A DNA stretch of 64,000 nt, taken from Candidatus Saccharimonadota bacterium. GTDB taxonomy: Bacteria; Patescibacteriota; Saccharimonadia; Saccharimonadales; Saccharimonadaceae. This document shows, in pieces, positions 5,686 to 27,695 of the stretch; the first letter of the stretch is position 1, and each line of letters starts with the position of its first letter. The stretch lies in contig JAPUET010000009.1 of NCBI GenBank assembly GCA_027492465.1, forward strand, positions 15,687 to 79,686, written 5' to 3'. A program made the position numbers and the translations under genes. A model generated the notes under the pieces. The model ran no database searches. It was given only the letters and a program-made list of their open reading frames with translations, and had not been told where the DNA came from.

Positions 5686-6099
5686 TTACTGTGTTGAAGA
5701 ACCGTAGTTTGTACTACTAGAGCTCGATGTACTAGAGAAGCTGTTGATAACAAAGTTAACAGCCGCATAGGCAAGAATTGCAACAATAATACCAACAAGC
5801 GCATAGAGAATGGTGTTTTTTGCCGCTTGGACTTGGGAGGCATCTCCACCAGAAATAACGTAGCGCAAGCCGCCGATTACAATCATAATTACCGCAATTG
5901 CGCCAACAATAAAGAGGAGAACGCTACTAATTTGTGAGAAAACGCCAGAATTACCAAATAAATCACCCGGCTGCTGGTCTGATCGTGCAGAACTAGCGCC
6001 ATCTGAAATATTGCCAAGAGCAAGTACCTGGGAAGCTCCGACTACGCTTACGCTGAGGGCAAGAACGGCAGTGATAATAAGTGGGACGATGCGCTTCAT
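5686..6099 (-). CDS. VirB2/TrbC-architecture T4SS pilin-like protein (paralogue 7, orphan)
   Basis: 137-aa ORF with signal peptide (VLALSVSVVGASQVLA). Core is TM1 + GGLRYVISGGDASQVQAAKNTILYALVGIIVAILAYAAVNFV, shared with the six paralogues at 8279-10657. SD (AAGGAG) lies upstream. Confidence 0.8.
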   Translation of the reverse strand: MKRIVPLIITAVLALSVSVVGASQVLALGNISDGASSARSDQQPGDLFGNSGVFSQISSVLLFIVGAIAVIMIVIGGLRYVISGGDASQVQAAKNTILYALVGIIVAILAYAAVNFVINSFSSTSSSSSTNYGSSTQ

Positions 6100-6268
6100 A
6101 CAATCTCCTTAGAACATGTTGCGTGTTTGTCTAGGTATAGTATACACCGCTCTTGTTCAAACAGGAAAGTATCTAGCCCACCAGGGATAAATGTGATAAA
6201 CTATCGTAGTGTTCAACATCAGCCGTTTGAGAAATATCCAAGTGGCTGATAGTGAAACGTGAACTACT

Positions 6269-6361
6269 GGAGGAGTACCCAAGTGGCTGAAGGGGACGGT
6301 TTGCTAAATCGTTAGTATGGGGAGACCTGTAGCGGGAGTTCGAATCTCCCCTCCTCCGCCA
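6269..6361 (+). tRNA. tRNA-Ser (anticodon GCT), CCA encoded
   Basis: Acceptor GGAGGAG/CTCCTCC; anticodon stem ACGGT/ATCGT with loop TTGCTAA; long variable arm; T-arm GGGAGTTCGAATCTCCC; 3' GCCA. Confidence 0.9.
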
Positions 6362-6401
6362 GAATAAAAATACGACCTGTAAAAGGTCGTATTTTTATTC
6401 T
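6361..6401 (+). terminator. hairpin terminator after tRNA-Ser(GCT)
   Basis: Perfect 17-bp stem (6361-6377 AGAATAAAAATACGACC pairs with 6385-6401 GGTCGTATTTTTATTCT). It begins at the terminal A of the encoded CCA. Confidence 0.65.
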
Positions 6402-6896: not shown

Positions 6897-7559
6897 CTAA
6901 TCATCTAACGGCTGGGCGGCCGCCACGGCAACCCACACCTCTTTGGCGCCAGCGTCTAGTAGTGCTTTGGCCGCAGCATTAAGCGTAGAGCCAGTCGTGG
7001 TAATATCATCGATCACCAAATAATAGCCCGAACAGTTGGCGGCCATAAATGCTTGACTGGCCTGCCGCACACGTTGCTTGCGCGTTGCTCCGCGCTGAAT
7101 ACTATTGGTTTTACGCCGAAGGAGGGGAGTGTAACCAAGGCCGCGCAACTTGGCAAACTGGCGAGCTAGCAATACCGTTTGATCATATCCGCGCTGACGG
7201 ATATGTGGCGCTATAGTAGGTATCGGTACAATGATTACGTTAGTAGGTAATAGGGGAAGGGTTGAATGAAGCAGCTCGGCTAAAGGTTTATAGGCCGCCC
7301 GCGTACGCTCAAACTTATATCGGTTTAGGAGTTCTTTTAACCCTTCACTACGACTGCCCACACACCATGCCTTGGTGAACGAGGGCTTGCAACCTGTACA
7401 GATATTTTGCATGGGTAGGGTTAGTTTATGACATAAAATACATGCTTCGAACGGCTCACTAACGATGTTATATTTACAATGCTCGCATAGTAACTCGCCA
7501 ATACGCCCGCAAGAGCTACAGTAGTGAGGCGCGATAAGCTGTATGGGTGAAAACTGCAT
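6897..7559 (-). CDS. comF: ComF-family phosphoribosyltransferase-domain protein
   Basis: 220-aa ORF. N-terminal Cys-rich zinc-finger-like region (CSSCGRIGELLCEHCKYN ... CILCH ... CTGC). C-terminal PRTase motif YYLVIDDITTTGSTLNAAAKAL. Confidence 0.85.
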   Translation of the reverse strand: MQFSPIQLIAPHYCSSCGRIGELLCEHCKYNIVSEPFEACILCHKLTLPMQNICTGCKPSFTKAWCVGSRSEGLKELLNRYKFERTRAAYKPLAELLHSTLPLLPTNVIIVPIPTIAPHIRQRGYDQTVLLARQFAKLRGLGYTPLLRRKTNSIQRGATRKQRVRQASQAFMAANCSGYYLVIDDITTTGSTLNAAAKALLDAGAKEVWVAVAAAQPLDD

Positions 7560-7665: not shown

Positions 7666-8142
7666 ATGGCACGTAAGCAAAACGACGATCTTTTGATCGA
7701 GGATGAACTCGCTGCAGCATTCCTGAATGACGACAGCCTAGCAGACGACCCTGTGGCCGCTCCTGCTCAACAACCGACCGATGCAGACAACCCTTGGGAA
7801 GAATCAGAAGATGATTTTCCCGGACAGCTTGCTGTTGACGTCTACGAAACCGACGAACAGCTCATCGTGAAAGCACGCACGGCTGGCGTAAACAAAGAAG
7901 ATCTTGATGTAAGCATTTCTGATGGCATCTTGACGATCAGCGGTACGCTTAGTAGCGGCGACGATGCAGTTGCAACCAACTGGCATATCCAGGAATGTTA
8001 TTGGGGCGAATTTAGCCGCACACTTGCACTACCGGTTGCCGTAAAGGAAGATGAGGTTGCTGCTGTACTAAAAGACGGCGTGCTCACCATAACCTTTTCA
8101 AAGATCAAGCAAGAACAGGCTAAGAAAATTACTATTCAGTAG
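7666..8142 (+). CDS. Hsp20/alpha-crystallin family small heat-shock protein
   Basis: 158-aa ORF. Acidic N-terminal arm followed by an alpha-crystallin domain (LAVDVYETDEQLIVKARTAGVNKEDLDVSISDGILTISG ... FSRTLALPVAV ... KDGVLTITFSK). Strong SD. Confidence 0.92.
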   Translation: MARKQNDDLLIEDELAAAFLNDDSLADDPVAAPAQQPTDADNPWEESEDDFPGQLAVDVYETDEQLIVKARTAGVNKEDLDVSISDGILTISGTLSSGDDAVATNWHIQECYWGEFSRTLALPVAVKEDEVAAVLKDGVLTITFSKIKQEQAKKITIQ

Positions 8143-8190: not shown

Positions 8191-8231
8191 TTTTTTTGGA
8201 TTAAGCCCCTAATCGGCTTAATCCAAAAAAA
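8191..8231. terminator. bidirectional rho-independent terminator (Hsp20 gene / pilin operon)
   Basis: Perfect 17-bp stem TTTTTTTGGATTAAGCC / GGCTTAATCCAAAAAAA with a 7-nt loop and T-runs on both strands. A second hairpin AGACTGTCACG/CGTGACAGTCT lies at 8233-8258. Confidence 0.8.
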
Positions 8232-8278
8232 TAGACTGTCACGGAATCGTGACAGTCTACCGAACCTAGAGACGGCTG

Positions 8279-8680
8279 CTATTCGCCGCCAACGAGACTC
8301 TTTACAACAAAGTCGACCGCTGCGTAGGCAAGAATTGCCACAACAAGACCAATGACAGAGTAAAGAATGGTGTTTTTGGCACTGGTTACCGCCGAGCTAT
8401 CGCCCTGCGACACTACATAGCGGAATCCGCCGATAATAAGCATGATCACTGAAACTGCACCAATAACAAACAAGAGCACTTTGGATACGGTTTCAAAGAT
8501 ACCGCCTTGGCCAAATAGTGAGCTTGGTTGTTCAGCACTTTTTGACGAGTTAACTCCGCCTCGTAAAGTAAGGTCGGCAGCCGGATCTTTAGCGGCAAAT
8601 ACCGGCGCTGCACTAACACTCAACACAAAGGCAGGTATTGCTAGAAGAGCAAGGAAGTGCTTTTTAATATTGATTTTCAT
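8279..8680 (-). CDS. VirB2/TrbC-architecture T4SS pilin-like protein (paralogue 1)
   Basis: 133-aa ORF. Signal peptide ending SVSAAPVFA. Core is VLLFVIGAVSVIMLIIGGFRYVVSQGDSSAVTSAKNTILYSVIGLVVAILAYAAVDFVV. Last gene of the pilin operon. Confidence 0.85.
   Translation of the reverse strand: MKINIKKHFLALLAIPAFVLSVSAAPVFAAKDPAADLTLRGGVNSSKSAEQPSSLFGQGGIFETVSKVLLFVIGAVSVIMLIIGGFRYVVSQGDSSAVTSAKNTILYSVIGLVVAILAYAAVDFVVKSLVGGE
8394..8437. repeat. 44-nt block identical to 8859-8902 (within pilin paralogues 1 and 2)
   Basis: GAGCTATCGCCCTGCGACACTACATAGCGGAATCCGCCGATAAT occurs exactly in both genes, while the flanking codons differ at synonymous and non-synonymous sites. Confidence 0.9.
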
Positions 8681-8752
8681 GTATCATAATTCCTTTCGTT
8701 TGATAGAACGTTTACCCTAGTTATAGCAGAAAGCGTGTGCGTTGTTAAGTAG

Positions 8753-9133
8753 TTAGGCGAACTGAGTGACAACAAAGTTAACAATTGCCCAAGCAAAGAT
8801 GGCCACTGCAAGGCCAATAACGGCGTAGAGGATAGTATTTTTAGCACTTGTAACGTTTGAGCTATCGCCCTGCGACACTACATAGCGGAATCCGCCGATA
8901 ATGATCATGATGACCGAAACCGCACCAATAAGATAAAGAAGTGCGTTCACAATTAACTTCACGATATCACCTGGTTTTGTTTGAGTGCCAGTACCACCAG
9001 TTGCATTAAGACCCTTGTTGACACAGTCTTTTGGAGTAGAGCATTGAGCGGCATAGGTAGCAGGCGCATAAGCCATTCCTGCAAGCCCCAAACTTACAAC
9101 AAAACTTGCCACTATAATTTTTATTTTTTTCAT
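8753..9133 (-). CDS. VirB2/TrbC-architecture T4SS pilin-like protein (paralogue 2)
   Basis: 126-aa ORF. Signal peptide (..GMAYAPATYA), Cys pair in the mature head (AAQCSTPKDCVNKG), conserved core GGFRYVVSQGDSSNVTSAKNTILYAVIGLAVAIFAWAIVNFV. SD AGGAG. Confidence 0.85.
   Translation of the reverse strand: MKKIKIIVASFVVSLGLAGMAYAPATYAAQCSTPKDCVNKGLNATGGTGTQTKPGDIVKLIVNALLYLIGAVSVIMIIIGGFRYVVSQGDSSNVTSAKNTILYAVIGLAVAIFAWAIVNFVVTQFA
8859..8902. repeat. 44-nt block identical to 8394-8437
   Basis: Exact copy of the block listed at 8394-8437. Confidence 0.9.
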
Positions 9134-9147
9134 TTTATTCTCCTGTC

Positions 9148-9513
9148 TTATGTAAAGAAGTTATTTACTAACGATATAATTGCCGCCGATAATAGCGCAA
9201 CAGCAAGACCAATAACGGCATAGAGGATAGTATTTTTAGCAGCCGTTACTTTACTGGAATCACCCGCAGAGACGGCATACATAAATCCTCCGATAATAAT
9301 AACAATAAAAGCAACTCCCGCCAAAATGATTAATGCCAAACTGACATAATTCCATACACCCTTTGATAGGTCGGTGTTTGATTTTACCAGCTTACATTGA
9401 CCAGCGTTGCTTGATTGGCAGGGAATGGTAAGCGCAGACGCAGAAGGGGCGAGTGCATAATTTATGGCAAAAAATCCCACAGCAACTAGTAGTCCAATAA
9501 AAAACTGTCGCAT
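9148..9513 (-). CDS. VirB2/TrbC-architecture T4SS pilin-like protein (paralogue 3)
   Basis: 121-aa ORF. Signal peptide (..ALAPSASA), Cys pair (IPCQSSNAGQCKLV), core GGFMYAVSAGDSSKVTAAKNTILYAVIGLAVALLSAAII. Confidence 0.85.
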   Translation of the reverse strand: MRQFFIGLLVAVGFFAINYALAPSASALTIPCQSSNAGQCKLVKSNTDLSKGVWNYVSLALIILAGVAFIVIIIGGFMYAVSAGDSSKVTAAKNTILYAVIGLAVALLSAAIISLVNNFFT

Positions 9514-9515
9514 TA

Positions 9516-9812
9516 CTATGAAGCTCCGCTTATAACTATGCTAGTAATTCCAAATGCCAGTAAAATCACTACAAGACCAATAACCGCTGAAAGAATAGCA
9601 TTTTTAGCCCGGGTAATAAGCTGTTGATTATTAGCCGAAACAACATACATAAATCCAGCAGCAACAATAACAATAACGGCTATTACCGCTGCCCAAAAAT
9701 ATACGGCGTTTAAAATATCTTTTAATTTAAAATCCGAAGCTGCAGGAATACCTGCGGTTTGCTGATTAATGAGTGCAGCAAAGTAAAAGAGGTGAGTATA
9801 GAGCATATTCAT
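9516..9812 (-). CDS. divergent T4SS pilin-like protein (paralogue 4)
   Basis: 98-aa ORF. Two hydrophobic helices separated by the loop FMYVVSANNQQLITRAKNAILSAVIGLVV. No Cys pair and only a weak signal peptide. Its start overlaps the upstream stop (ATGA). Confidence 0.75.
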   Translation of the reverse strand: MNMLYTHLFYFAALINQQTAGIPAASDFKLKDILNAVYFWAAVIAVIVIVAAGFMYVVSANNQQLITRAKNAILSAVIGLVVILLAFGITSIVISGAS

Positions 9813-10243
9813 AGTATACTCGCAATCGTGTTTATTATGGCCGCGGCCAGTAGTACAATAATTAACCCAATAATGGCGTTTGTGATGGTTTTCTTAGCGT
9901 CACTCATGCCATCTGAAGACCCAGCACTCAGCATGTACGTAAAGCCGCCTTTTATAATGAAGAATGCTGCAACATACGCCGCTATACCAAACCCCGCCTG
10001 TAGTACATTTAGTACTATTGTTGTAATGAATTTGCTCAGATCACCTTTACCACTGCCTGGCGATTTAATAACACAAGCTCCATCCTTTTTTTGCTCTTGT
10101 AGGCCACGGTACCACGGGGTGATCCCAAGAATTGGTGCATCGCTACATGCTGCTGCTGCGGGGATCGAAAAGACAACCGATGGCGCAATCATAGCCCCAG
10201 CAAGGCTTAAGATAACGAGTAGAGATGCAAGGAAGCGGCGCAT
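9809..10243 (-). CDS. divergent T4SS pilin-like protein (paralogue 5)
   Basis: 144-aa ORF. Signal peptide (..SVVFSIPAAAA), Cys pair (ACSDAP...DGACVIK), core GGFTYMLSAGSSDGMSDAKKTITNAIIGLIIVLLAAAIIN. AGGAGG SD. Confidence 0.8.
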   Translation of the reverse strand: MRRFLASLLVILSLAGAMIAPSVVFSIPAAAACSDAPILGITPWYRGLQEQKKDGACVIKSPGSGKGDLSKFITTIVLNVLQAGFGIAAYVAAFFIIKGGFTYMLSAGSSDGMSDAKKTITNAIIGLIIVLLAAAIINTIASIL

Positions 10244-10657
10244 TTAGAATATTCCTCCTGGAATTAACCACATAAGTACCACGCCCATGGCGGCAAATAT
10301 CACCAGACCGATAACTGTTTGTAACATAATATCTTTGGCTTTTTTGATCTGTTCACTGTTGCCCCCTGCGCCAGAATACATAATTCCCGCATACACAAAA
10401 GCGCCGATAGCCACGACACCTATACCGGCAGTAAGAACTCCTAATGCCCATTCTAAAATCATGAAAATCGCCGAGTTGCTAGAGTTAGCACGAGTTCCTT
10501 TTGGGGTGTCGTTATCGGCGGCAGCGCAAAAATTATTGTCTAAAATCGCGCAGGTGAGCTTCTCTTTTGCTATAGCTGGTTGAGCTGAGACAAAAATGGT
10601 AGCTACTAATGCGCTGAATATCAAGGAAATTGCAAGTATGGTACGTGTTGATTTCAT
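10244..10657 (-). CDS. divergent T4SS pilin-like protein (paralogue 6, first gene of operon)
   Basis: The ORF track gives 10244..10747. I prefer the internal ATG at 10657 (MKSTRTILAISLIFSALVATIFVSAQPAIA signal peptide). Cys pair (KLTCAILDNNFCAA), core AGIMYSGAGGNSEQIKKAKDIMLQTVIGLVIFAAMGVVL. Confidence 0.75.
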   Translation of the reverse strand: MKSTRTILAISLIFSALVATIFVSAQPAIAKEKLTCAILDNNFCAAADNDTPKGTRANSSNSAIFMILEWALGVLTAGIGVVAIGAFVYAGIMYSGAGGNSEQIKKAKDIMLQTVIGLVIFAAMGVVLMWLIPGGIF

Positions 10658-10762
10658 AATTTTACAATCTTTACCGCTACTAGTGTACCGCCCTAGGTGG
10701 GTAGCTGTAAAGCCATAGGTAAAAATCGTGCGGTTCTTACCGTACATTTTTTAGCATGAGCA

Positions 10763-10791: not shown

Positions 10792-10800
10792 GAATCAGAT

Positions 10801-13731
10801 ATGTGGGAACTGGCAAAAAGGCTCTCGCACGGTAGATATCCGCTGCGACGTTTTTCACTTGTGGTCATGAGCATGTTGATGGCCTTTTTTGTGGCAACAT
10901 TCGCCCTTTCCACCCCAGCCTACGCCGACGACGCCGAGCGCAACGGTACCACGATTTCTTACCAGGAAAATGAATACGCGGTTGCAAGTAGTACAGATAT
11001 GCCAAGTTCAAAACCCGCTCAAGCAAAATCTGCCTATTTTTACTTAGACTCAGCCGCAAATAAAGCCCATTTTATTTTTACCGAAGAAGTAGACCCTGCA
11101 AAAGCCGCAAAAGGTTACTACGTTGTTTACGACTACACGCCGCCCTCGAATTACAGCAACCCCTCACCCCCAACCGACGTTACATTTACTGCCGGAACAA
11201 GTGCCTCGACCTCTGATTGCGACAATCCGAACCTTACGGGAATTAGCTGGTGGGTGTGCCCAACCGTCAATGCACTTGCAAGCGGGATGGACTGGATTTA
11301 CGGCATTATTTCAAACTTTCTTGTCGTAAAAACCGTCACGGGCGATACAGATTCTGCAATTTATCAAATGTGGACAATTGTAAGAGATATTGCAAATATC
11401 TGTTTCGTTATTGCGATTATTGTAATTGTGTACTCTCAGATAACCAGTATCGGTCTGACGAATTACGGTATAAAACATACATTGTCGCGCCTTATTATCG
11501 CCGCGATACTCGTTAATATATCGTACTGGATCTGTGCGCTCGCGGTGGACGCCTCTAACGTCTTGGGCTACGGTATACATAGCCTGTTTATGGGTGTGCT
11601 CGGCCGACTCAGTGTAGGCGCAAATTATAGTGCGCTCGATCCTACATGGTCGAGTGTCGCCACCTGGGCGCTTGGAAGCGGTGCGGCGGTTGGTATCATA
11701 GCTTTCGCCGTTAACCCGGGAGCAATCTTTTTGCTTATACCTCTTTTACTCGGAGCTGTCACCGCGGCGCTTATTGCGTTGATTGTTCTTGCGGCCCGCC
11801 AAGCACTCATTACGGTGCTTATTATCGTCGCCCCACTTGCCTTTGTGGCCTATATTCTTCCAAATACCGAAAAATGGTTCACCAAATGGCGTGAAACATT
11901 TACAACCATGTTGTTGCTGTTTCCAATCTTTTCGGCAATATTCAGTGGCGCCCAGCTAACAGGTATGGCGATTATTCAAACAGCCGACGGCAATGCTATT
12001 ACCGTTATTCTTGGGTTAGCCGTGCAGGTTGCCCCAATTGTTGTTACGCCACTGCTCGTGAAGTTTAGCGGCAGCATAATTGGGCGCATTGCCGGCATGG
12101 TGAACAACCCAAACAAGGGATTAATTGATCGTTCACGCAAAATGGCCCAAGGGTGGGCTGATGAAACCAAAAAGCGTGCCCTCACTGGTCGAAATATCTC
12201 TGGCACTCTTGCTAAGCGAAAGGGGCTCGGGTGGCTTAATGCCCGCAACCGCGCCACTCAGGGTGTTGATAGTTTCTTCCGTAACCAAGAGGCGCGGCGC
12301 AAAAACCTTGATACTGGTGCCGAGAACCGTTTCGCAGCAACAAACATAGGCCAAAAACGCACCATTGAAGCAGGTAATTTGGGAGTTGATAAAACCGATA
12401 TCGAAACCAGGACCATGGATACCGAATCGGGTAGGGCACTCATGCATCGCCAGGGCATGTCAGAGGTGTATAAAACCAATATGCAGAATCGTTTTGGCGA
12501 ACACACCCTTGGTAAAGACCTTGATATGGAAAAACGAAAGGCCGAACAAAACAAAAAGCGTATTGAAAACGACCATCAAACACATTGGGATAATGCGGTT
12601 CGTACCGACGCCTCACTACTTGAACTAGACCTCAGTGTTAAAAAAAGCGAAAGCAGCGCGGCGCTCGCAAAAGAAAAACTCGAAAAAATGCACGCCGAAA
12701 TTGTCGCCCAGGGCCATAATTCTGAATATATCCTAAACCTACGCGGTATCGATGCGCACTCCCAGGGTACGATGCTCAACATTGCTCACGATTTGAACAA
12801 ACAGGCGATGGAAACAACCTTTGCAAAAGCCGCCAAGACAGAGGCAGAGCACGCACTTACCAGCGCTACAAATGATGTCTTGCTAAAGAACTCTATAAAG
12901 TTTGACGGTGTGGATGCACGAAAATATGCAGCTGGCATTGGTAGTGAAGCGGCCGTGCTTGCAAGCGCTGTGGCGCGCGAACGCAAAGAGTTTGGCGAGG
13001 CAGTCGGGTACCAAAAAGAACTGGCAAGTCACTTTAAGCTTAATGCCGGGCAGATTGAAGAGCTTGCTATGGCAAAGGGTAACGTAACGGTGACCGACGA
13101 TCATGGCAACTCACACACCTTTAGTGTCAACGATGATTACGCCCGTGATATGGCCGTAGAAGAAATCTTTACCGTCGGTTCACATGGCCAAAAGATGGCT
13201 GTGTTGAAATCGACCGGAGCAGGAGAAATCAACTACAGCAACCGACGCACCATTCAGCAGGCGGCTATTAAGAGTGGCTTTAGCAAAGCTGCGCCCGCAA
13301 TCAATGACAAAACGCTCGACGACATCATTAACGGTAGGTTTAAGGGCGACGAAAGCTGGCAGTACCATTCGCTACGCGAAGTACTTGAAGGACGCCTTAA
13401 CCCACAATCTCTCTCGACAGCCAATGTCGCCTCGCTTGAATTCCTATTTGCTGATCCGACCGATCCTAGCAACGCGCTTGCGGCCGCTCAGTTTAACCAA
13501 TTGCTTGCCGATTCAATTCCTGGCGAACTTGCCAACTTACGAAGAAGCAACCCTGCGGCAACCAACGCCGATGCAAGAGCAAGTCTTTTGGGCAAGTTTA
13601 ACGCTGAGCGCGATAAGCTACAACGCATGGCTGCCAGCGTACTCGATACGCCAACTATTCGTCAAAATACTAACGCTCAATCTGCCGACGAACTCAAGCG
13701 GTTTGCCGGAGGTTACTATACGGGCCCGTAG
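10801..13731 (+). CDS. TrbL/VirB6-like polytopic T4SS channel protein with long cytoplasmic tail (paralogue A)
   Basis: 976-aa ORF. Signal peptide (..STPAYA), about 130-aa exported head ending in ISWWVCP, roughly 6-7 TM helices (IANICFVIAIIVIVYSQITSIG.. to ..LAVQVAPIVVTPLLV), then about 540 aa of charged, coiled-coil-like tail. Confidence 0.8.
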   Translation: MWELAKRLSHGRYPLRRFSLVVMSMLMAFFVATFALSTPAYADDAERNGTTISYQENEYAVASSTDMPSSKPAQAKSAYFYLDSAANKAHFIFTEEVDPAKAAKGYYVVYDYTPPSNYSNPSPPTDVTFTAGTSASTSDCDNPNLTGISWWVCPTVNALASGMDWIYGIISNFLVVKTVTGDTDSAIYQMWTIVRDIANICFVIAIIVIVYSQITSIGLTNYGIKHTLSRLIIAAILVNISYWICALAVDASNVLGYGIHSLFMGVLGRLSVGANYSALDPTWSSVATWALGSGAAVGIIAFAVNPGAIFLLIPLLLGAVTAALIALIVLAARQALITVLIIVAPLAFVAYILPNTEKWFTKWRETFTTMLLLFPIFSAIFSGAQLTGMAIIQTADGNAITVILGLAVQVAPIVVTPLLVKFSGSIIGRIAGMVNNPNKGLIDRSRKMAQGWADETKKRALTGRNISGTLAKRKGLGWLNARNRATQGVDSFFRNQEARRKNLDTGAENRFAATNIGQKRTIEAGNLGVDKTDIETRTMDTESGRALMHRQGMSEVYKTNMQNRFGEHTLGKDLDMEKRKAEQNKKRIENDHQTHWDNAVRTDASLLELDLSVKKSESSAALAKEKLEKMHAEIVAQGHNSEYILNLRGIDAHSQGTMLNIAHDLNKQAMETTFAKAAKTEAEHALTSATNDVLLKNSIKFDGVDARKYAAGIGSEAAVLASAVARERKEFGEAVGYQKELASHFKLNAGQIEELAMAKGNVTVTDDHGNSHTFSVNDDYARDMAVEEIFTVGSHGQKMAVLKSTGAGEINYSNRRTIQQAAIKSGFSKAAPAINDKTLDDIINGRFKGDESWQYHSLREVLEGRLNPQSLSTANVASLEFLFADPTDPSNALAAAQFNQLLADSIPGELANLRRSNPAATNADARASLLGKFNAERDKLQRMAASVLDTPTIRQNTNAQSADELKRFAGGYYTGP

Positions 13732-19410: not shown

Positions 19411-21251
19411 TGGCAAAGAAACTTGACCCGATTGATATTGCAGCTCAACAGCGTGCCCGCGAACAGGCCGAGGTAGAGCAAGCCTTTCTAAAGGGCATGA
19501 CGACGCTGCGCGACCTCATTGCGCCGAGTAGCCTCGAGATCCACAGCAGCCACTTTAGGGTTGGTACAAAGTACGGTCGAACATTATATATTTACGGATA
19601 CCCGCGAGAACTCTATACCGGTTGGCTTTCGGGGCTCATTAATATTGATCAGGTGATCGATATTAGTATGTTTATTTACCCCGTAGAAACAGAGGTAGTG
19701 CTAAATAATCTTCGCAAGAAGGTAACGCAGCTCGAAGCTGATATGAGCATTTTAAACGATAAGGGCCGAACACGCGATCCCGCAAAAGAAGCCGCGCTGG
19801 CAGATGCCGAGGAACTACGCGACCAACTACAGGTGGGCGCAGAGCGATTCTTCCGTTATGGCTTATATGTAACTATTTATGCCGATAGCCTGGAAGAGCT
19901 TGGGTTTGTGCAGCACGCTATTGAAACGCTATTTGGCCAGCAACTGGTATATAGCAAAGTCGCCTCGAGCCAGCAAGAGCAAGGGCTTAATAGTACGATT
20001 CCGCAAATGGCCGACCAATTGCAAATTCGTCGTAACATGAATACCGGTGCTATTAGTACGAGTTTTCCATTTACCAGTGCCGACTTAACTCAAGAAAAGG
20101 GCGTGTTATATGGCATAAATATGCACAATAACGGCTTGGTGATTTTTGACCGCTACAGCTTAGAGAACGCCAACATGGTAGTATTCGCAAAGTCGGGTGC
20201 CGGTAAGTCGTTTACCGTGAAACTTGAGGCGCTGCGCAGTATGATGCTCGGTGCTGATATTTTGATTATCGACCCAGAAAACGAATATCAGAAACTGAGC
20301 GATGCGGTAGGGGGCAGTTATATTCGCCTTAGCCTTAATAGTGATACGCGTATTAATCCGTTTGATTTACCACAGGTTATTGATAGCGACGAGGCTGATG
20401 ATGCGCTGCGAGCGAACCTCGTAACTCTGCATGGATTGCTACGTTTGATGTTGGGCGGGAGCCAGATGGCGGCGAATGGCCAGCTAATGGCTGGTCTCAC
20501 ACCCGCCGAAGAAGCCGATCTTGACCAAGGATTGATTGACACCTACGCGCGCGTGGGTATTACCAGCGACCCGCTAACACATAACTCTACACCGCCAACA
20601 ATTAGCGATTTATATGACACATTGCTCCATATGGGCGGAACCGGCCCACAACTGGCGCAGCGACTCCGTAAATACACCAGCGGGACGTTTGCGGGAATCT
20701 TTAGCCAGCAGAGTAATATCGATATTAATAACAATATGGTGGTGTTTAATATTCGCGACCTTGAGGACGAACTGCGCCCCGTGGCGATGTATATTGTGCT
20801 CTCGCATATCTGGAATATTACCCGCACAGTGAAAAAGAAGCGTATGTTGATTGTGGACGAGGCATGGCAACTAATGAAATATGACGACAGCGCAAACTTT
20901 TTATTCAGCCTCGCTAAACGCGCTCGAAAATACGCTCTTGGTCTTACTACCATTACCCAAGACGTTGAAGATTTCATGGGAAGCAAGATGGGGCGCGCAA
21001 TTGTCGCGAACAGTTCAATGCAGTTACTGCTAAAACAATCTTCGAGTGCAGTGGATGTGCTTGCTGATATTTTCAAGCTTACTGAAGAGGAGCGAAAACG
21101 GCTTGCCAACTTCCCGGTTGGGCAGGGGTTGTTCTTTGCCGGGCAAAACCATGTACATATTCAAATTATTGCCAGCCAGACAGAAACGGAACTTATTACT
21201 ACCAACCCGCAAACGGCGCTCACCCAAGGACAACAAGGTACAGGAGCCTAG
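19410..21251 (+). CDS. virB4: VirB4-family T4SS ATPase
   Basis: 613-aa ORF. Walker A VVFAKSGAGKSFTVK, Walker B KKRMLIVDEAWQL, TTITQDVEDF. The N-terminal part (YGRTLYIYGYPRELYTGWLSGLI) is like monoderm VirB4 (PrgJ/TcpF type). Confidence 0.92.
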   Translation: MAKKLDPIDIAAQQRAREQAEVEQAFLKGMTTLRDLIAPSSLEIHSSHFRVGTKYGRTLYIYGYPRELYTGWLSGLINIDQVIDISMFIYPVETEVVLNNLRKKVTQLEADMSILNDKGRTRDPAKEAALADAEELRDQLQVGAERFFRYGLYVTIYADSLEELGFVQHAIETLFGQQLVYSKVASSQQEQGLNSTIPQMADQLQIRRNMNTGAISTSFPFTSADLTQEKGVLYGINMHNNGLVIFDRYSLENANMVVFAKSGAGKSFTVKLEALRSMMLGADILIIDPENEYQKLSDAVGGSYIRLSLNSDTRINPFDLPQVIDSDEADDALRANLVTLHGLLRLMLGGSQMAANGQLMAGLTPAEEADLDQGLIDTYARVGITSDPLTHNSTPPTISDLYDTLLHMGGTGPQLAQRLRKYTSGTFAGIFSQQSNIDINNNMVVFNIRDLEDELRPVAMYIVLSHIWNITRTVKKKRMLIVDEAWQLMKYDDSANFLFSLAKRARKYALGLTTITQDVEDFMGSKMGRAIVANSSMQLLLKQSSSAVDVLADIFKLTEEERKRLANFPVGQGLFFAGQNHVHIQIIASQTETELITTNPQTALTQGQQGTGA

Positions 21252-21254: not shown

Positions 21255-24200
21255 ATGACTAAGGTTGATGATCCAAGAAATATTCAGGCAGCCTATGATG
21301 ATTTAGGCAATCCAGCCCAAGAGTATCGAGCCGATAGTTACGGGACGATGACACCAGGGGAACGAGCAAAATTAGACCAAATAGATGCCGGAGAACGTGA
21401 TCGATCGGCAAACGAAGTCGTACGCGACGGCGAACAGCCGAGCAACGCATGGATCGACAACACTAAACCCAACGATGGAATAAAAAAAGGTACTGACGGA
21501 ATTCCAATGAGCCGCGGTGCAGTTATAAAACTCCTTGTAAAGCGAGGCGGTCCTGTAGGTCTAGTGATTGCCCTGCTAGTATTCGCGGCGGGATTCTTTG
21601 GCGGACCAGCAACACTATTTTTAAGCCTAAAAGAAAACCTCACTATTAATTGGGACCAGCAGAACTTTACCGCCGAGAGACGATCGCAGCGAATACTTGC
21701 TAAGCGTTTAGGTAACGATGGTACGACCGGTAAGTGTGGTGCAATAAAGTTTGCTTGCCGGTACGAAAAACCTTCGACGCGGCAATTAAACAGCTTAGAT
21801 GAAGCTGGCATTAAGGCGCTTCGAAAAGATGGCTCGATTATTTCTAAACAAAAAATTATTAATGGCGAGCGCCCAGCTTATTACTATTTCGGGGAGGTTA
21901 CCGATGAGGCGGGGATTAAAAAAATTGTCTCTTCTAAAACTGCCCTGCAGCAGAAACTAGTTCCTGCAAGTGGGTTTTTGAAAGAGTTGCGCTCTAACGC
22001 CGATTTTAGAAGTGCATTTAGGCGTGCTTACAATCCTCGATGGGTGAATTTTGTAGATAGTAAGGCCTTAAGCTTTTTGCAAAGTCTTGGGATTTCAAAA
22101 TCTGTTAATAAAGCAGTCTCCGAAGCAGTCGATGCCGATGCGGCACAAAAAGCAATCCAAGAAATTGCCGATGGAAAGTCAAGCGCCCTTGGAGATGACG
22201 CTGAAAAGGCAGTAAAAGAGATGGTCGAAAAAGAATCAAAGTCATTCGCCGCATCAACCGCTAAACAGATATCAAAGGCAGATGATTCGCTTATGTGGGC
22301 CGTCGCGCTTTGTGCCGGCACCAAGGTGCCTGGTGTTTATACAACGGTATTCAGAAATTATAGAACTGCCCAAATGGGAGCGGCAGTGTTTTCTAGCGTT
22401 TTAACACCGACCGACGCAATTAAAGCGAATAAGGGAACCCCTAAAATGGCGGAAAATATTGGCAACTTACTGACAAAAAAGGATGTTAATGGTAAAACGG
22501 CCATGGATTCCGGTGCTATTAAATATGGCATGCTTGGCGATCGTGCCGCAGCCCGGCAATCGACGACGCTGAAAAAATATATACCTGGATATACAGGCAA
22601 CTCATTGCTGAATTACGCGGCCTCGTTTGGAAATAATGGTGCTGTCAAGAACACTTGCAGCGCCCTAACGAGCGGCGAGGCTCAAATTGCCGCTTTGTCG
22701 ATCGATGCCGTACGAGCGTCTAATCCGGCTGGCTGGCTATCGCTTGCTCTGGGGGTGGGAGTCGAACTTCTATCTAGAACGGGAGCACTTGACGCTATAC
22801 TTACTCAAATGATCTCTGGGGCCATGAGCGCGATTAATGGTATGGTCGACTGGAAGAGTGTCCTTGGAATGATGGCAGGTGACTTTATGAAAGACGCCGA
22901 AGGCGAACAGTTTGGCGATATGGTCGGTGTCACTGCGGCAGTACTAGGAAACCTTGCAAACCAAGCCGGCAATATACCATTGACAGCGAGCCAAAAAGCC
23001 GCCTTTGACAACGATGTTGCAACCCCTACAAAACTTGCGTGGGCCGAGGAAGATAGGCTAACGCATAGTCCATTTGACGCCTCAAATCCAAACACTTTTA
23101 TGGGTTCAATTTTTTCGAAATTTGTTGGAACGTACGGTATCGCCCCTTCTATTACGAACATTCTCTCGGGCTCTTTGTCACTCATGGGAGCATTTCCAAG
23201 AGCGTTCTTTGCGCCCGCCCACGCCACATCATCAACTGCCGAAGATTGGAGAAATCAGTGCCCAAGCGATGGCGACTATGCTATCGCGAATGCGGATGTG
23301 GCGGCCGGTCCACTGTGCGATGTACAGTACGCAGTACCAGCAAAATATATCAATCTCGACCCTGTTGAGGTTGCGACAAGTCTATATACTTCTCACCAGA
23401 TTGATGCCGAGGGAGAAGTGGTAAGTAATAGTGATCTTGCTAACTATATCGCTCAGTGCAATACCAGTAATACCTACTCTCTGGATGAGTGTAAGATTAA
23501 TGATAGTGATTCGAAAGAAGCGAAAGTCACGACAAGTCTATATACTTCTCACCAGATTGATGCCGAGGGAGAAGTGGTAAGTAATAGTGATCTTGCTAAC
23601 TATATCGCTCAGTGCAATACCAGTAATACCTACTCTCTGGATGAGTGTAAGATTAATGATAGTGATTCGAAAGAAGCGAAACAAAGAAAAGCTTATTTTG
23701 CAGCATATAATGACTCGAAAGAAGACGAGAAAAAAGCCTATTACGCCCTATACCAGATTGATAAACGTACAATTGACGGAATGGATAACGACCCGCCCAC
23801 ACCTGGTGGTGGCGACGGGGGTGATGGCAGTGGTGATGGTAGCGGTACTACCGAAGATACCGGGCCCTGCTTTACACCAGGCACGATAAATATGGGTATT
23901 TACGACAATGCACACGATGCCGGCAAAAAAACTTCTGTCCGTATATGCGCGGTAACCAACCTTTCGGCACCCGGCTATAAAGGTAGCCCGTATTACAGTA
24001 GCATCAAAGCCGAAAACCCTGCCGAGCAATCGCAAGCCGAAGGTAAGGCACTCGTCAATGCACGTGCATCGGCCGCAGCCTATAAAATGGTAGATGATGC
24101 TAAAAAAGATGGCGTAGACCTCAACCTTGGCGGCTATTTTGCCTTTCGTACATACGAACACCAAGTAGCGTTACGCAAGCAATGGTGTGCTAAAGGAAAT

Positions 24201-24395
24201 TGTGACGGTGCGGCCGAACCCGGTACCTCCAACCATGAAATGGGGCTAGCCATAGACTTTAATCTCCCAGGCACCAATAAAAGCGCTGTAAGAAATGCTA
24301 GTAAAGAACTGCAGTGGCTGCGCGCCAACGCCGGTAAGTATAGTTTTAAGGAAACCGTCAGTAGTGAGGATTGGCACTGGGCATATCGACCATGA
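21255..24395 (+). CDS. large membrane-anchored T4SS-associated protein with C-terminal M15 (VanY-like) peptidase domain
   Basis: 1046-aa ORF. One TM (GLVIALLVFAAGFFGGPATLFLSL), a large exported region, a Gly/Asp linker (GGGDGGDGSGDGSG), and a C-terminal zinc peptidase signature SNHEMGLAIDF (H-x6-D) plus EDWHWAY (E-x-x-H). Confidence 0.85.
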   Translation: MTKVDDPRNIQAAYDDLGNPAQEYRADSYGTMTPGERAKLDQIDAGERDRSANEVVRDGEQPSNAWIDNTKPNDGIKKGTDGIPMSRGAVIKLLVKRGGPVGLVIALLVFAAGFFGGPATLFLSLKENLTINWDQQNFTAERRSQRILAKRLGNDGTTGKCGAIKFACRYEKPSTRQLNSLDEAGIKALRKDGSIISKQKIINGERPAYYYFGEVTDEAGIKKIVSSKTALQQKLVPASGFLKELRSNADFRSAFRRAYNPRWVNFVDSKALSFLQSLGISKSVNKAVSEAVDADAAQKAIQEIADGKSSALGDDAEKAVKEMVEKESKSFAASTAKQISKADDSLMWAVALCAGTKVPGVYTTVFRNYRTAQMGAAVFSSVLTPTDAIKANKGTPKMAENIGNLLTKKDVNGKTAMDSGAIKYGMLGDRAAARQSTTLKKYIPGYTGNSLLNYAASFGNNGAVKNTCSALTSGEAQIAALSIDAVRASNPAGWLSLALGVGVELLSRTGALDAILTQMISGAMSAINGMVDWKSVLGMMAGDFMKDAEGEQFGDMVGVTAAVLGNLANQAGNIPLTASQKAAFDNDVATPTKLAWAEEDRLTHSPFDASNPNTFMGSIFSKFVGTYGIAPSITNILSGSLSLMGAFPRAFFAPAHATSSTAEDWRNQCPSDGDYAIANADVAAGPLCDVQYAVPAKYINLDPVEVATSLYTSHQIDAEGEVVSNSDLANYIAQCNTSNTYSLDECKINDSDSKEAKVTTSLYTSHQIDAEGEVVSNSDLANYIAQCNTSNTYSLDECKINDSDSKEAKQRKAYFAAYNDSKEDEKKAYYALYQIDKRTIDGMDNDPPTPGGGDGGDGSGDGSGTTEDTGPCFTPGTINMGIYDNAHDAGKKTSVRICAVTNLSAPGYKGSPYYSSIKAENPAEQSQAEGKALVNARASAAAYKMVDDAKKDGVDLNLGGYFAFRTYEHQVALRKQWCAKGNCDGAAEPGTSNHEMGLAIDFNLPGTNKSAVRNASKELQWLRANAGKYSFKETVSSEDWHWAYRP
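23374..23681 (+). repeat. perfect in-frame tandem duplication (unit 156 bp = 52 aa, two copies)
   Basis: 23374-23525 is identical to 23530-23681 (152 of 156 nt per unit; only the 4-nt junction differs). Encodes TSLYTSHQIDAEGEVVSNSDLANYIAQCNTSNTYSLDECKINDSDSKEAK twice. Confidence 0.95.
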
Positions 24396-26377
24396 TAAAG
24401 CATATATTCAAAAAACTACTATTATATACCGTAGCCGTCACGCTATTCGTGCAGGCAGTGGCGCCACCGGTACTCGCCAAGGATGGCTATGACCCCAAAT
24501 TTTACTCTGGTAATGATATTCTATACTACGACCCACGCGACCAGTGTATTCACGGTGGAGATAGCAGTACTCCTAGCGCATCAATACCAACTAGCACCGA
24601 CTTAAATGAAAATCTTAAGAATATATTTCTTTACTTTAAAAATAAAGGGTTAAGTAACGTCCAAGCTGCGGGTATCATAGGTAATATATCTCAAGAATCT
24701 GGCGGCGATCCCACACTACTGCAGGGTGGAAAAAAACTCAAAGATCCGAGCTCACTTGGTACGGCCGTAGGCATTGGTAAAGCGTGGGGACTTATTCAGT
24801 GGGATGCCGGCGGCCGTGCTGTAGAATACGCAAAAAAGGCAGGGATAAGCGGCGCTATCTACGAAATGGGGACACAGCTCGACCTGATCTACTGGCATAT
24901 GAGCGTAGAGTCGCCAACCAGCCATAAGAATATGCTCCAGGACTGGAAGGGCGACGATGCGACAGACGTCAAAAAGGCGACGCTGTACTTTGAGCATACT
25001 ATGGAGGGCGCCGGTAGGCCAATGATGGCGAACCGTTACGCTGCCGCTGAGGCTGCGTTGAAAAAATTTGGCAGCCTAGAGGGAAATCCAGACCTTGGCC
25101 CTGCCGAAAATGCCTGCACCTGCACGCCGTCATTACCAAAAAAGGGCGACAACACCATAGTCCTCGACCCAGGACACACCGCGAAAGGTAAAGGTGAACG
25201 CGACAGCGAAACCGGCCTATGGATAGGTGAATACTCAAACGGACAAGAAGATAAGGATGCTTGGGAAGTTGCTAATAAAGTAAAGGCGAAGCTCAGCGAG
25301 GATGGCTATACGGTTATTCTGACAAAGTCGGCCGTTGATAGCTACACCAACCTCAAATTACGTGCCGAGGTTGCCAACAAAGCCAATGCAGCTCTAGCCA
25401 TCAGTATCCACACCACTGCCGGTAAGTTTACCGATTCTAGCACCGCGCGCAGTAACCCGAACTGGGCTACGCCACAAAGAATGAATGGCTGGCGCGAAGG
25501 TACAAAAGGCCGCGTTACCTTTACTAACCACGAACTGGCCGATAAAAGCGCCGAGTATGCTAAGAAGATAGCCGAAGCGCGCGCTAAAGCTATCGGTGGT
25601 AAAGCCGTAGTGACAACGACTCTGTTCAATGAAGGGAACTTCGACCGCGGCGGCAATATGTCTAAGGGTAATATCGCTATAAATCAGCTATTTGCGAAGG
25701 TTCCGTGGGTCTATAACGAAGCAGGACAGAGCGGGCTTAATCTCGATCAGTACGCCGATGGGTTAATTGAGGGTATCAAAGCCGCCGTACCCCTAGTTCC
25801 GACCTCGTCGCCAACTGATGCAACCCAAGATGACCCCCAGCCGGGCGGTTGCGCAGATGATGGCATTGCCGATACAAGCAGTCTGGCAGCCACTATTCGG
25901 TCGTACACTTGGCCCGACTATAAAGGACGCGGATATACGAAAGCCAAGCCGGCTTATACAGAAGCAACCAAAGTGGCAGCCAAAGCCAATCTTTACATCG
26001 GTAATAACGGTATCGACTGCGGTGGCTATATAACACGACTCATGCAAAATAGTGGACTCGATAAGGACTACAATAATCTTCCGGGTCTAAAAGGCCCTAC
26101 AGATGTACAGCGACAATACCTAATAAAAAGTGGTAAGTACACTAAACTCAACCCTAAAGACACAAGTGAACTACGATTGGGCGATATTGCTATAACTACC
26201 AGCAAAGGGCACACCTACATGTGGGTGGGTAGTCTAGAAGGTATTAACTCTAAGAGCGTTTCCGCATCGAATGGTAGTCGCGCACCTATGGCTGACGAAG
26301 CCTACTATGCAAGGCTGGGTATCAAAACGGACGGACTTAGCTATGAATGGTATCGCCTAAAACAGGCTGCTACATAG
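24392..26377 (+). CDS. secreted three-domain peptidoglycan hydrolase (lysozyme-like + MurNAc-L-Ala amidase + NlpC/P60-like)
   Basis: The ORF track starts at a TTG at 24371. I prefer the ATG at 24392, which overlaps the upstream stop (ATGA). Signal peptide present. Domain 1: AAGIIGNISQESGGDP...WGLIQWDAGGR (phage-tail-lysozyme-like). Domain 2: IVLDPGHTAKG...AISIHTTAG (Amidase_3-like). Domain 3: GIDCGGYITRL...GHTYMWVG (Cys/His NlpC/P60-like). Confidence 0.85.
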   Translation: MIKHIFKKLLLYTVAVTLFVQAVAPPVLAKDGYDPKFYSGNDILYYDPRDQCIHGGDSSTPSASIPTSTDLNENLKNIFLYFKNKGLSNVQAAGIIGNISQESGGDPTLLQGGKKLKDPSSLGTAVGIGKAWGLIQWDAGGRAVEYAKKAGISGAIYEMGTQLDLIYWHMSVESPTSHKNMLQDWKGDDATDVKKATLYFEHTMEGAGRPMMANRYAAAEAALKKFGSLEGNPDLGPAENACTCTPSLPKKGDNTIVLDPGHTAKGKGERDSETGLWIGEYSNGQEDKDAWEVANKVKAKLSEDGYTVILTKSAVDSYTNLKLRAEVANKANAALAISIHTTAGKFTDSSTARSNPNWATPQRMNGWREGTKGRVTFTNHELADKSAEYAKKIAEARAKAIGGKAVVTTTLFNEGNFDRGGNMSKGNIAINQLFAKVPWVYNEAGQSGLNLDQYADGLIEGIKAAVPLVPTSSPTDATQDDPQPGGCADDGIADTSSLAATIRSYTWPDYKGRGYTKAKPAYTEATKVAAKANLYIGNNGIDCGGYITRLMQNSGLDKDYNNLPGLKGPTDVQRQYLIKSGKYTKLNPKDTSELRLGDIAITTSKGHTYMWVGSLEGINSKSVSASNGSRAPMADEAYYARLGIKTDGLSYEWYRLKQAAT

Positions 26378-26386
26378 GAGGATCAT

Positions 26387-27031
26387 ATGGATAAACGTGT
26401 AAAAATTATTATTACAGCATTCGTCGCTATCACCCTAGGACTCATCGTATGGGCGATAGTAGACAACGTGAATCGCATCGGTAAACTTGCGGTCACCGTA
26501 GAAGTTTACCCCAAGGACGCTAAGGTATCTGTAGATGGTGAACGTATATCTAGTGGTCAGCACTATATTACTCCTGGTAAGCACACTTTCACTGCTTCAC
26601 GTAGCGGTTTTGCCGACGCCAAACAAGACGTTACGATATCTGAGGATATCACCTACGCTGGGCTCGTCTTGCAGCCGCAATCCGACGAGGCTAAAAAGTT
26701 TGTTGAAGACGACCCCAATAGCCTCGATATTGAAGCAATTACCGGTAAAATGTTCACTAATGAGGGGATAGAGGTAGTAGGCAACTACCCAGTCATTGGA
26801 AAGCTACCATATTACGACCTCACTGCGCCATTTTCGATAGATTACGGCCAAGATGAAAAAACCCCCGACCGCCCGTATATTGTTATCAGCTATTCGGTAG
26901 CTAACAGCCGACCACTGGCACTAAAGTGGTTATACGAGAATAATAATGGTAGCCTAAGTAACCTTGATATACGATTTAAAGATGAGTCGCGCATACAATC
27001 CGAGCAGTATAGGGGTCAATCTAATGAATAA
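26387..27031 (+). CDS. bitopic membrane protein with PEGA-like domain
   Basis: 214-aa ORF with SD GGAGGA. N-terminal TM (IIITAFVAITLGLIVWAIV), then VEVYPKDAKVSVDGERISSGQHYITPGKHTFTASRSGFADAKQDVTI (PEGA-like beta domain). Confidence 0.7.
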   Translation: MDKRVKIIITAFVAITLGLIVWAIVDNVNRIGKLAVTVEVYPKDAKVSVDGERISSGQHYITPGKHTFTASRSGFADAKQDVTISEDITYAGLVLQPQSDEAKKFVEDDPNSLDIEAITGKMFTNEGIEVVGNYPVIGKLPYYDLTAPFSIDYGQDEKTPDRPYIVISYSVANSRPLALKWLYENNNGSLSNLDIRFKDESRIQSEQYRGQSNE

Positions 27032-27695
27032 TCGCAATAGAAAACTTTTTTTCCTACTAGTAGGCATTGTTGCTATAGTCGCCATAGCGCTTTATGTTGT
27101 ATGGCAATTTTACGCCAATAGTAGACATGTCACAATTACGTACAACAATATATCATCGGTACGGCTTGTCGAGGTTGAGCACGAACGGGAGGTGGGTGAG
27201 GTGTCGGGTGTTGGTGCTATTTCATCCGGCAGCACTATCACTATAGATAAGCATAAGCAATATGTCCTTAATTATACCGGCAATAAAGGGTACGAATCGG
27301 GACAAGTACCTATTAATGAAGATGATACAGAGATCACTATTAATCCCGATTACTCTAAAGATAATAAAAAGTCGCTCATTGATGAGCGCAGGCCCATGCT
27401 AGACGAGGTAATACGAAACGGGTTTGCTGATTATGAACTGTACAATATAGAACGTGGTGTATTATACAACAAAGATAGCTGGTATTTTACAAAACTTACC
27501 TACAAAGACACTGAAGATGAGATTAATTCTGACACGTTAATTGTTGGTCTACAAAAGGAGCCTTCAGGGAGCTATAAGATGATATTAAAGCCATACGTAT
27601 ACTTCAGTAAACTCATGTACCCGAATGTTGCAGATGATGTACTTGATATCGCTAATCGATACGCCGTGGGATTGGACGGCGAGCTAGAAGAGTAG
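27024..27695 (+). CDS. bitopic membrane protein, unknown function (last gene of T4SS operon)
   Basis: The ORF track gives 26964..27695. I prefer the ATG at 27024 (MNNRNRKLFFLLVGIVAIVAIALYV), which overlaps the upstream gene by 8 nt. The exported domain is about 190 aa. Confidence 0.65.
   Translation: MNNRNRKLFFLLVGIVAIVAIALYVVWQFYANSRHVTITYNNISSVRLVEVEHEREVGEVSGVGAISSGSTITIDKHKQYVLNYTGNKGYESGQVPINEDDTEITINPDYSKDNKKSLIDERRPMLDEVIRNGFADYELYNIERGVLYNKDSWYFTKLTYKDTEDEINSDTLIVGLQKEPSGSYKMILKPYVYFSKLMYPNVADDVLDIANRYAVGLDGELEE

Follow-up and report, generated by a model that had tools for sequence, protein, structure and literature searches.

The closest described relative of the gene cluster reported here is the "apparent T4SS (SEML1_0006-0019)" of Southlakia epibionticum ML1, a type IV secretion system (T4SS) found by transposon sequencing (Tn-seq) to be essential for epibiotic growth (Wang et al. 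2023, Cell, PMC10633639). Our cluster occupies positions 5686-27695 of a 64-kb stretch of Candidatus Saccharimonadota DNA, the whole of which is called the window below. In the ML1 system pilins are predicted, which is uncommon among systems of the Gram-positive type, and neither a coupling protein nor a relaxase could be recognised (PMC10633639). According to the tables of that study, the ML1 order runs from dnaA, dnaN and recF through a 750-bp hypothetical gene, a 636-bp PEGA gene, a 1932-bp lysozyme gene and a 3342-bp M15 gene to a 1839-bp VirB4 gene. An 882-bp open reading frame (ORF) and PrgI come next, then two VirB6-like genes (2997 and 3267 bp) that flank an 837-bp gene with a Tat signal and an NTF2-like domain, and finally six pilins, Hsp20, comFC, tRNA-Ser and one more pilin. 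Nearly all the orthologues of the genes treated here are essential in ML1, the exceptions being the intervening lipoprotein and the outlying pilin; all ML1 essentiality calls and locus tags given below are from the same source (PMC10633639).

A phylum-wide survey has placed such systems in a wider frame (Quinonero-Coronel et al. 2025, PMC12102498). It described a VirB4 clade related to MPF-FATA, with TrsD as the commonest VirB4 companion, and reported PrgI and VirB6 together with VirB2 arrays, which comprise 2-11 genes of low identity and occur especially in Saccharimonadia. Relaxases were rare, with 109 counted in all the Patescibacteria surveyed, and homologues of the VirD4-like type IV coupling protein (T4CP) were common, usually far from virB4; the distant one of ML1 is non-essential. 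T4SS loci were found near dnaA, dnaN and rnpA (PMC12102498). A 2025 review regards the T4SSs of Patescibacteria as unique among monoderms for these same features.

Read from 27695 down to 5686, the window reproduces the order of ML1 SEML1_0004-0024 gene for gene, with near-identical sizes. We therefore regard the cluster, with high confidence, as a conserved chromosomal Saccharibacteria T4SS orthologous to SEML1_0004-0024, which would act as a non-conjugative, VirB4-driven pilus or conduit to the host. An earlier note, made from the letters of the window, had proposed a domesticated, non-conjugative device derived from a T4SS and possibly central to epibiosis. Synteny, the housekeeping flanks, the lack of integrase, attachment (att) repeats and relaxase, and the ML1 Tn-seq data support this proposal. 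The locus and its interpretation are correct and already published, including the proximity to dnaA and the anomaly of VirB2 in a monoderm. The components of the cluster are as follows.

5686..6099, minus strand: outlying VirB2-type pilin, the seventh copy
8279..10747, minus strand: six tandem VirB2-type pilin genes (8279-8680, 8753-9133, 9148-9513, 9516-9812, 9809-10243 and 10244-10747)
10801..13731, plus strand: VirB6-like polytopic protein A, 976 aa
13757..16447, minus strand: VirB6-like polytopic protein B, 896 aa, or 869 aa with a start at 16366
16493..17356, minus strand: fast-evolving lipoprotein with an SRR motif and a lipobox
17514..18503, plus strand: PrgI/VirB3-like membrane protein whose long tail is rich in Pro/Gln
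18535..19410, plus strand: TrsD/TraC-like ORF, putative free-standing homologue of the VirB4 N-terminal domain
19410..21251, plus strand: VirB4 ATPase, CD1110/MPF-FATA-like, without the canonical N-domain
21255..24395, plus strand: 1046-aa protein, anchored in the membrane and ending in a VanY/M15 peptidase domain
23374..23681, plus strand: perfect in-frame tandem duplication inside the VanY gene
24371..26377, plus strand: 668-aa exported hydrolase (probable ATG start at 24392)
26387..27031, plus strand: bitopic PEGA-domain protein with one transmembrane (TM) helix
26964..27695, plus strand: bitopic protein with one TM helix (probable ATG start at 27024)

This inventory had been drawn up in the earlier note, down to the seven pilins, the two VirB6-like proteins of about 900 aa, the lipoprotein, the PrgI/VirB3-like protein, the VirB4 with a separate N-domain-like ORF before it, the two multi-domain peptidoglycan hydrolases and the two bitopic proteins, and almost every item held up in the profile searches and comparisons described below. 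A divergent VirB2-type pilin array adjoins the machine genes, and genes for a peptidase and a lysozyme lie directly downstream of virB4, both of which are hallmarks of the chromosomal T4SS of Patescibacteria.

We have compared the locus with those of other genomes by tblastn with the window proteins, taking a single genome for each species, which yielded 80 loci (Saccharibacteria by label in nearly every case), and counting matches within 10 kb of virB4. The gene order and orientation around virB4 were the same in the large majority of the 80 loci, and in most of them the cluster lay beside dnaN/dnaA, which bore out the synteny that the earlier note had suggested checking. The TrsD-like ORF was matched in 79 of the 80 loci, PrgI in 74 and the M15 protein in 60, followed by the VirB6-like proteins and dnaN (58/80 each), dnaA (56/80) and the lysozyme protein (53/80). 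Identity to the window proteins fell from 84-95% for VirB4 to 57-79% for the TrsD-like protein and 44-78% for PrgI, and further to 27-58% for the VirB6-like proteins, 22-45% for the hydrolases and 26-64% for the pilins; the lipoprotein was barely detectable. Such a gradient from the cytoplasmic motor to the exposed parts is as expected if the latter form a host-contact surface. Class-wide synteny together with 84-95% identity of VirB4 points to vertical inheritance with fast surface evolution, and hence argues against a mobile island. The VirB4 homologues in this identity range came almost entirely from Saccharibacteria/Saccharimonadales genomes, in line with the Saccharibacteria-like cell that had been proposed.

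Pfam profile scans covered 61 ORFs, nearly every ORF in the 64 kb with a length of 100 aa or more, and among these 61 ORFs there was no T4CP (VirD4/TcpA-type), relaxase (MOB), integrase or partition family, and no replication-initiator family besides the chromosomal dnaA. A repeat search found no att-like direct repeats flanking the cluster, and there was no GC step at its borders. These results agreed with the absences that the earlier note had listed for the 64 kb. It had also held that a VirD4 homologue, relaxase, integrase and att repeats just outside the window would overturn its reading. We have fetched and examined a further ~10 kb beyond the left end of the window (~74 kb in total), and this flank contained no relaxase, coupling ATPase, integrase or att-like repeat; the genes there are FemAB-type, Mur ligase, FtsX/ABC, TsaD and Sua5 genes. 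To the right, 36 kb hold rnpA-yidC-jag, glycosyltransferases, a Wzm/Wzt transporter, a rhamnose pathway and surface proteins. Since these ~74 kb hold neither a relaxase nor a T4CP, the machine is probably not a conjugation apparatus.

The protein assignments combined the Pfam scans with NCBIfam, an exhaustive HMMER search, AlphaFold (AF2) models and Foldseek against the PDB; the precomputed annotations that we quote (PF19590 TrbL_3 and PF26593) come from the records of the collection and are separate from our own Pfam scan. NCBIfam had no model that matched the VirB6-like, PrgI, PEGA or bitopic proteins. The VirB4 assignment was the firmest, with NF045971 conju_CD1110 matching at E 8.9e-112 (374.7 bits against a cut-off of 325) and P-loop_TraG at E 1.4e-27, and with the GAGKSF and LIVDEAW motifs present in the translation. 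Its homologues number thousands at 93-96% identity, the named ones being Saccharimonas or Saccharimonadales, and, judged by its profile match and homologues, the protein belongs to a Patescibacteria clade related to the monoderm MPF-FATA machinery. The match was confined to positions 172-733 of the 752 in the CD1110 model, and the protein therefore lacks the usual N-terminal domain.

The missing domain may be supplied by the preceding TrsD-like ORF, for which the evidence is suggestive. This ORF matched the NCBIfam TrsD model at E 1e-4, below the cut-off, and also positions 234-279 of the VirB4_plasma model, and it carries the precomputed annotation PF26593 "TraC-like". Its AlphaFold model was built with 43 close homologues, and the top 14 Foldseek matches in the PDB were all R388 TrwK/VirB4 (E from 1.6e-3). 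Because the mean predicted local distance difference test score (pLDDT) of the model was low (54.8), these matches are suggestive rather than proof. Neither the ORF nor a profile of 29 TrsD sequences had a meaningful match among the sequences of solved structures. The stop codon of the ORF overlaps the virB4 start (TAATG), indicating translational coupling. Upstream of this pair, the PrgI/VirB3-like protein was recognised by PF12666 (E 4.8e-11, 43.5 bits against a cut-off of 27) and has one strong TM segment; its counterpart SEML1_0010 is essential in ML1.

All seven small ORFs of the pilin type matched PF18895 T4SS_pilin in Pfam, with E values from 1.2e-12 to 1.6e-5 (3.9e-9 for the outlying copy). 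The gathering cut-off was passed by six of them, while 10244-10747 reached 25.3 bits against 26.6. The VirB2 architecture, a signal-peptide-like helix followed by two TM helices, was predicted for six of the seven, including the outlying copy, and only the two TM helices were predicted for the 98-aa pilin at 9516-9812. Pairwise identity between the copies was 26-56%, and the repeat search revealed that a conserved core recurs across the array as DNA-level repeats. The counterparts of the six-gene array (SEML1_0014-0019) are all essential in ML1, and the ML1 pilin at the position of the outlying copy (SEML1_0024) is non-essential. Two tRNA-Ser genes, comFC and hsp20 lie between the outlying pilin and the array.

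The two VirB6-like genes converge, and their products are paralogues with 39% identity over a polytopic core of 375 aa (E 2e-64) and 5-7 predicted TM helices. Protein A consists of a signal/TM helix, an extracellular N-domain, about six TM helices and a long hydrophilic C-terminal half. The direct Pfam matches to TrbL (PF04610) stayed below the gathering cut-off of 25.9 bits, at 16.9 (E 0.0057) for protein B and 13.2 (E 0.075) for protein A. Support came from homologues in other species, 15/44 of which matched TrbL (best E 3.2e-6). With PF18895, PF12666 and NF045971 matched, profile searches of the kind suggested in the earlier note upheld its VirB2, VirB3 and VirB4 assignments for the window ORFs, and the VirB6 assignment is tentative. 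No meaningful match for protein B was found among the sequences of solved structures. We also observed that PF19590 TrbL_3 is precomputed for both proteins (weak for protein A), our own scan having given only the weak PF04610 matches.

Between prgI and the VirB6-like genes lies the least conserved component, the lipoprotein. Its lipobox Cys51, preceded by the SRR motif, is invariant in all seven members of the family. The exhaustive HMMER search retrieved six homologues among 1.84 billion representative proteins and a word-indexed database returned one, with a single tblastn match among the 80 loci; the family is thus extremely small or fast-evolving. In 20 loci, the slot between the two VirB6 genes was occupied by a signal-peptide-bearing ORF of 211-364 aa; most of these ORFs have a lipobox Cys, and several have an RR motif. 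A profile of the slot ORFs matched four of the lipoprotein homologues and not the window lipoprotein itself, and hhalign aligned the slot-ORF family with the lipoprotein family at 95.8% probability over only 47 columns.

The ML1 protein at the same position (SEML1_0012) is annotated with a Tat signal and an NTF2-like/VirB8-like domain (e4ec6D1). The AF2 model of the window lipoprotein had a pLDDT of 75, with the domain at residues 80-287 mostly above 90. Foldseek found no significant neighbour in the PDB, the best E value being 0.019 and the matches weakly NTF2-like; the match of highest probability (0.75) was TraE, a VirB8 homologue (5wio_D, TM-score 0.38 over 93 columns, E 0.3). Since a good model gave no significant PDB match, a VirB8-like fold is unconfirmed. 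The module formed by VirB6-like protein B and the lipoprotein (13757-17356) is inverted relative to nearly all other loci and to ML1, its orientation being common only to one other locus (L023). A search for inverted repeats that might have mediated the inversion gave only short, chance-level matches.

The right-hand part of the cluster encodes the two hydrolases and the two bitopic proteins. The 1046-aa protein has a TM helix near residue 100 and a VanY/M15 domain at residues 933-1045 (PF02557, E 4.5e-15), and the 668-aa protein combines Phage_lysozyme2 (PF18013, E 1.1e-22) and Amidase_3 (PF01520, E 2.7e-15) with a C-terminal domain that contains Cys/His. Their counterparts, SEML1_0007 and SEML1_0006, are both essential in ML1. 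The PEGA-domain protein (PF08308, E 2.1e-4) corresponds to SEML1_0005, which also has a PEGA domain and is essential. The last bitopic protein, for which no Pfam or NCBIfam family was found, matches SEML1_0004 in size and position. Inside the VanY gene, two 152-nt copies repeat with a period of 156 nt, that is, 52 codons. Three independent short-read contigs with an identical virB4 all end inside this repeat, which either arose by very recent duplication or is a repeat that the assembly may have left at the wrong copy number. The contigs on record with an exact match are 5.9-14.5 kb long.

The neighbouring genes and signals are listed below.

6897..7559, minus strand: ComFC-like phosphoribosyltransferase (Pribosyltran and a weak double zinc ribbon match)
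7666..8142, plus strand: Hsp20 small heat-shock protein (PF00011, E 5.4e-18), a conserved neighbour of the pilin array
8230..8261, minus strand: terminator-like hairpin with a 14-pair stem and a T run, which closes the pilin operon 18 nt past the stop of the last pilin gene
17442..17470, minus strand: perfect sigma-70 consensus promoter-like site (12/12, extended -10) in the divergent lipoprotein/prgI spacer
27713..31562, minus strand: recF-dnaN-dnaA, identified from their translations; chromosomal context and not part of the machine
31619..31681, no strand assigned: three perfect DnaA boxes (TTATCCACA) between dnaA and rnpA, a putative oriC

The cluster runs straight into recF-dnaN-dnaA and the origin region, as had been noted. 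The three TTATCCACA boxes are the only perfect ones in the window, and they place the end of the cluster about 4 kb from the likely origin. A further promoter-like site (10/12 matches) was found at 10763-10791, upstream of VirB6-like protein A. The promoter and hairpin scans fitted the operon picture of the earlier note, whose count of four transcription units becomes five when the outlying pilin is included. On the left, comFC adjoins hsp20 and the pilins in 8 loci of the synteny survey, and Hsp20 is 76-80% identical in 8 loci. The ComFC-like protein is probably a conserved neighbour rather than part of the machine. The gene at its position in ML1 (SEML1_0021, K02242) is non-essential, and the Hsp20 counterpart (SEML1_0020) is essential.

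Four tRNA genes (Ser-CGA, Arg-GCG, Ser-GCT and Ser-TGA) lie at 4627-6598, embedded in housekeeping DNA; they were absent from the earlier note. The 5' end of a tRNA-Ser recurs as a 21-nt copy at 6229-6249, which is 41 nt upstream of the tRNA-Ser at 6269, and the opposite end of the cluster showed no repeat to match it. Next to the outlying pilin, 4885-5643 encodes a protein of 252 aa that is Pro-rich in its N-terminal half, has a single TM helix and matched no Pfam family. The ORF at 3936-4493 encodes a 185-aa protein with a PaaX central, Cas2-like domain (PF20803, E 8.9e-25), and no CRISPR array or cas genes were seen near it. Two surface-type proteins are encoded in the polysaccharide-synthesis region on the right, one of 732 aa with eight ChW repeats (47201-49399, E 4.9e-93) and one of 933 aa with a GDSL lipase/acylhydrolase domain (60473-63274); either might take part in host interaction or wall modification. 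Succinyl-CoA synthetase alpha and beta genes (sucD/sucC-like, 38710-40690) stand among the glycosyltransferase genes of this reduced-looking Saccharibacteria genome.

Based on these assignments, we propose how the machine might work. A hexamer of VirB4, with the N-domain contributed by the separate TrsD/TraC-like gene, would be tethered to the membrane by PrgI/VirB3 and would sit beneath a channel made up of one or both of the extended VirB6-like proteins. The peptidoglycan would be opened by the two large hydrolases in a VirB1-like role. VirB4 would then extract membrane-embedded VirB2-type pilins, which would polymerise into a pilus or conduit reaching the host cell, with transport independent of a coupling protein.

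The archaeal Ced system (CedA/A1/A2/CedB) and ComB of Helicobacter pylori combine a VirB4-family ATPase, polytopic VirB6-like proteins and small VirB2-like proteins, and both are chromosomal DNA-import systems without coupling protein or relaxase. By analogy with them, we infer that the conduit would exchange macromolecules with the host, most likely by taking up host nucleic acid or other building blocks. The slight lean to import stems from a cell without nucleotide synthesis, from the dispensability of ComEC and from a parts list that parallels import systems lacking a T4CP. In its explicit form, a machine that runs inwards, with the VirB4-driven pilus and the VirB6 channel pulling in host DNA/RNA or other macromolecules, is a tentative proposal held well short of even confidence. 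If true, import would explain both the essentiality and the lack of relaxase and coupling protein. The idea of inward transport has already been floated in the literature; tubular structures at a patescibacterial parasite-host interface have been suggested to be T4SS pili, and acquisition of host RNA has been argued (bioRxiv 10.64898/2026.06.21.733656). The essential role of the T4SS is not exerted via natural competence, since comEC is dispensable in ML1.

Several points weigh against our reading of the locus. The VirB6 assignment draws on sub-threshold or precomputed profile matches, the TrsD-like model is of low confidence (TM-score ~0.3 in addition to its low pLDDT), and the VirB8-like fold of the lipoprotein is neither confirmed nor refuted by the modelling. 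The essentiality data were obtained in S. epibionticum ML1, which is another species (PMC10633639), and a T4CP could lie elsewhere in the genome, as reported for ML1. Moreover, pilus, channel, substrate and transport direction are deduced from the genes, and import and export cannot be told apart on that basis.

The main alternative to macromolecule uptake is the export of effectors or toxins, in which proteins would be delivered into or onto the host so that it stays permissive. No dedicated coupling protein would take part, as in Bordetella Ptl and Brucella VirB. Exporters without a T4CP exist (PMC12102498; PMC12857230), Wang et al. favour protein export "or an alternative capacity" (PMC10633639), and the fast-evolving surface parts would fit a host-specific interface. 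However, the Pfam scans revealed no gene within the cluster or next to it that could be recognised as encoding an effector, a chaperone or a secretion signal, and export would leave unexplained the import need of a cell that has no nucleotide synthesis and in which ComEC is dispensable. We consider export possible, if somewhat doubtful. An organelle mainly for adhesion, in which VirB4 would only build a VirB2 pilus with variable pilins for different hosts and nothing would be translocated, seems improbable to us. The divergence of the seven pilins would suit such a role, pilin arrays have been proposed to aid adaptation to host strains, and no PrgB-like adhesin has been detected in Patescibacteria (PMC12102498). 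Yet type IV pili already serve adhesion and motility in Saccharibacteria according to the literature, and the locus retains two large VirB6-like proteins and two wall hydrolases whose orthologues are essential in ML1. The retained channel proteins and the essential hydrolases suggest a trans-envelope conduit.

It is very unlikely that the cluster is a decayed or cryptic integrative and conjugative element (ICE) with its relaxase, T4CP and integrase encoded beyond the window. The four tRNA genes at the left edge are typical integration targets, the short upstream copy of the tRNA-Ser 5' end could be read in the same sense, and the VirB4 clade descends from conjugative MPF-FATA systems (PMC12102498). 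Against this, the vertical inheritance seen in most of the 80 species, the rarity of relaxases in the phylum, the unchanged GC at the borders and the extent of the housekeeping flanks (~16 kb on the left and ~36 kb on the right) all speak for a resident chromosomal locus. The ICE reading was rejected on the lack of att repeats and integrase within the ~74 kb, the housekeeping flanks and the class-wide synteny.

Few machines have been shown to be essential for the epibiotic life of ultra-small bacteria, and the Saccharibacterial T4SS is among them. Our analysis holds no new biology: starting from the raw sequence, it arrives independently at findings already reported by Wang et al. 2023 and by Quinonero-Coronel et al. 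2025. It adds an annotated example of the locus, a quantified conservation gradient from motor to surface and an account of how exposed components have been rearranged in a lineage-specific way.

Compared with the monoderm MPF-FATA systems (pCF10 Prg, pGO1 Trs and the C. difficile CTn), the window shares a CD1110-family VirB4, PrgI, a TrsD-type ORF and a large multi-domain wall hydrolase, and likewise has no outer-membrane core complex. Unlike them, it is without a PcfC-like T4CP, a relaxase and oriT-linked genes, and it has VirB2-type pilins and is chromosomal, origin-proximal and vertically inherited. The comparison with Ced and ComB is looser: DNA import is a proposal for the system of the window, ComEC-dependent uptake is dispensable in ML1, and the window VirB4 scored 48.4 bits against NF041017 CedB, for which the cut-off is 700. 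The ML1 T4SS is by far closer. Both systems stand directly after dnaA-dnaN-recF, with six tandem pilins and one more beyond tRNA-Ser, with Hsp20 and comFC as neighbours and with no relaxase or T4CP in the cluster. The window differs from ML1 in the inverted module of VirB6-like protein B and the lipoprotein, in the 52-codon tandem duplication of the M15 protein, both of them minor peculiarities, and in the middle domain of the lysozyme protein, which is Amidase_3 here and a second lysozyme-like domain in ML1. The surface proteins of the window are only ~25-45% identical to the versions of other lineages. Relative to the Patescibacteria-clade T4SS described in PMC12102498 nothing of substance differs, and the window is one more Saccharimonadia example of that system.

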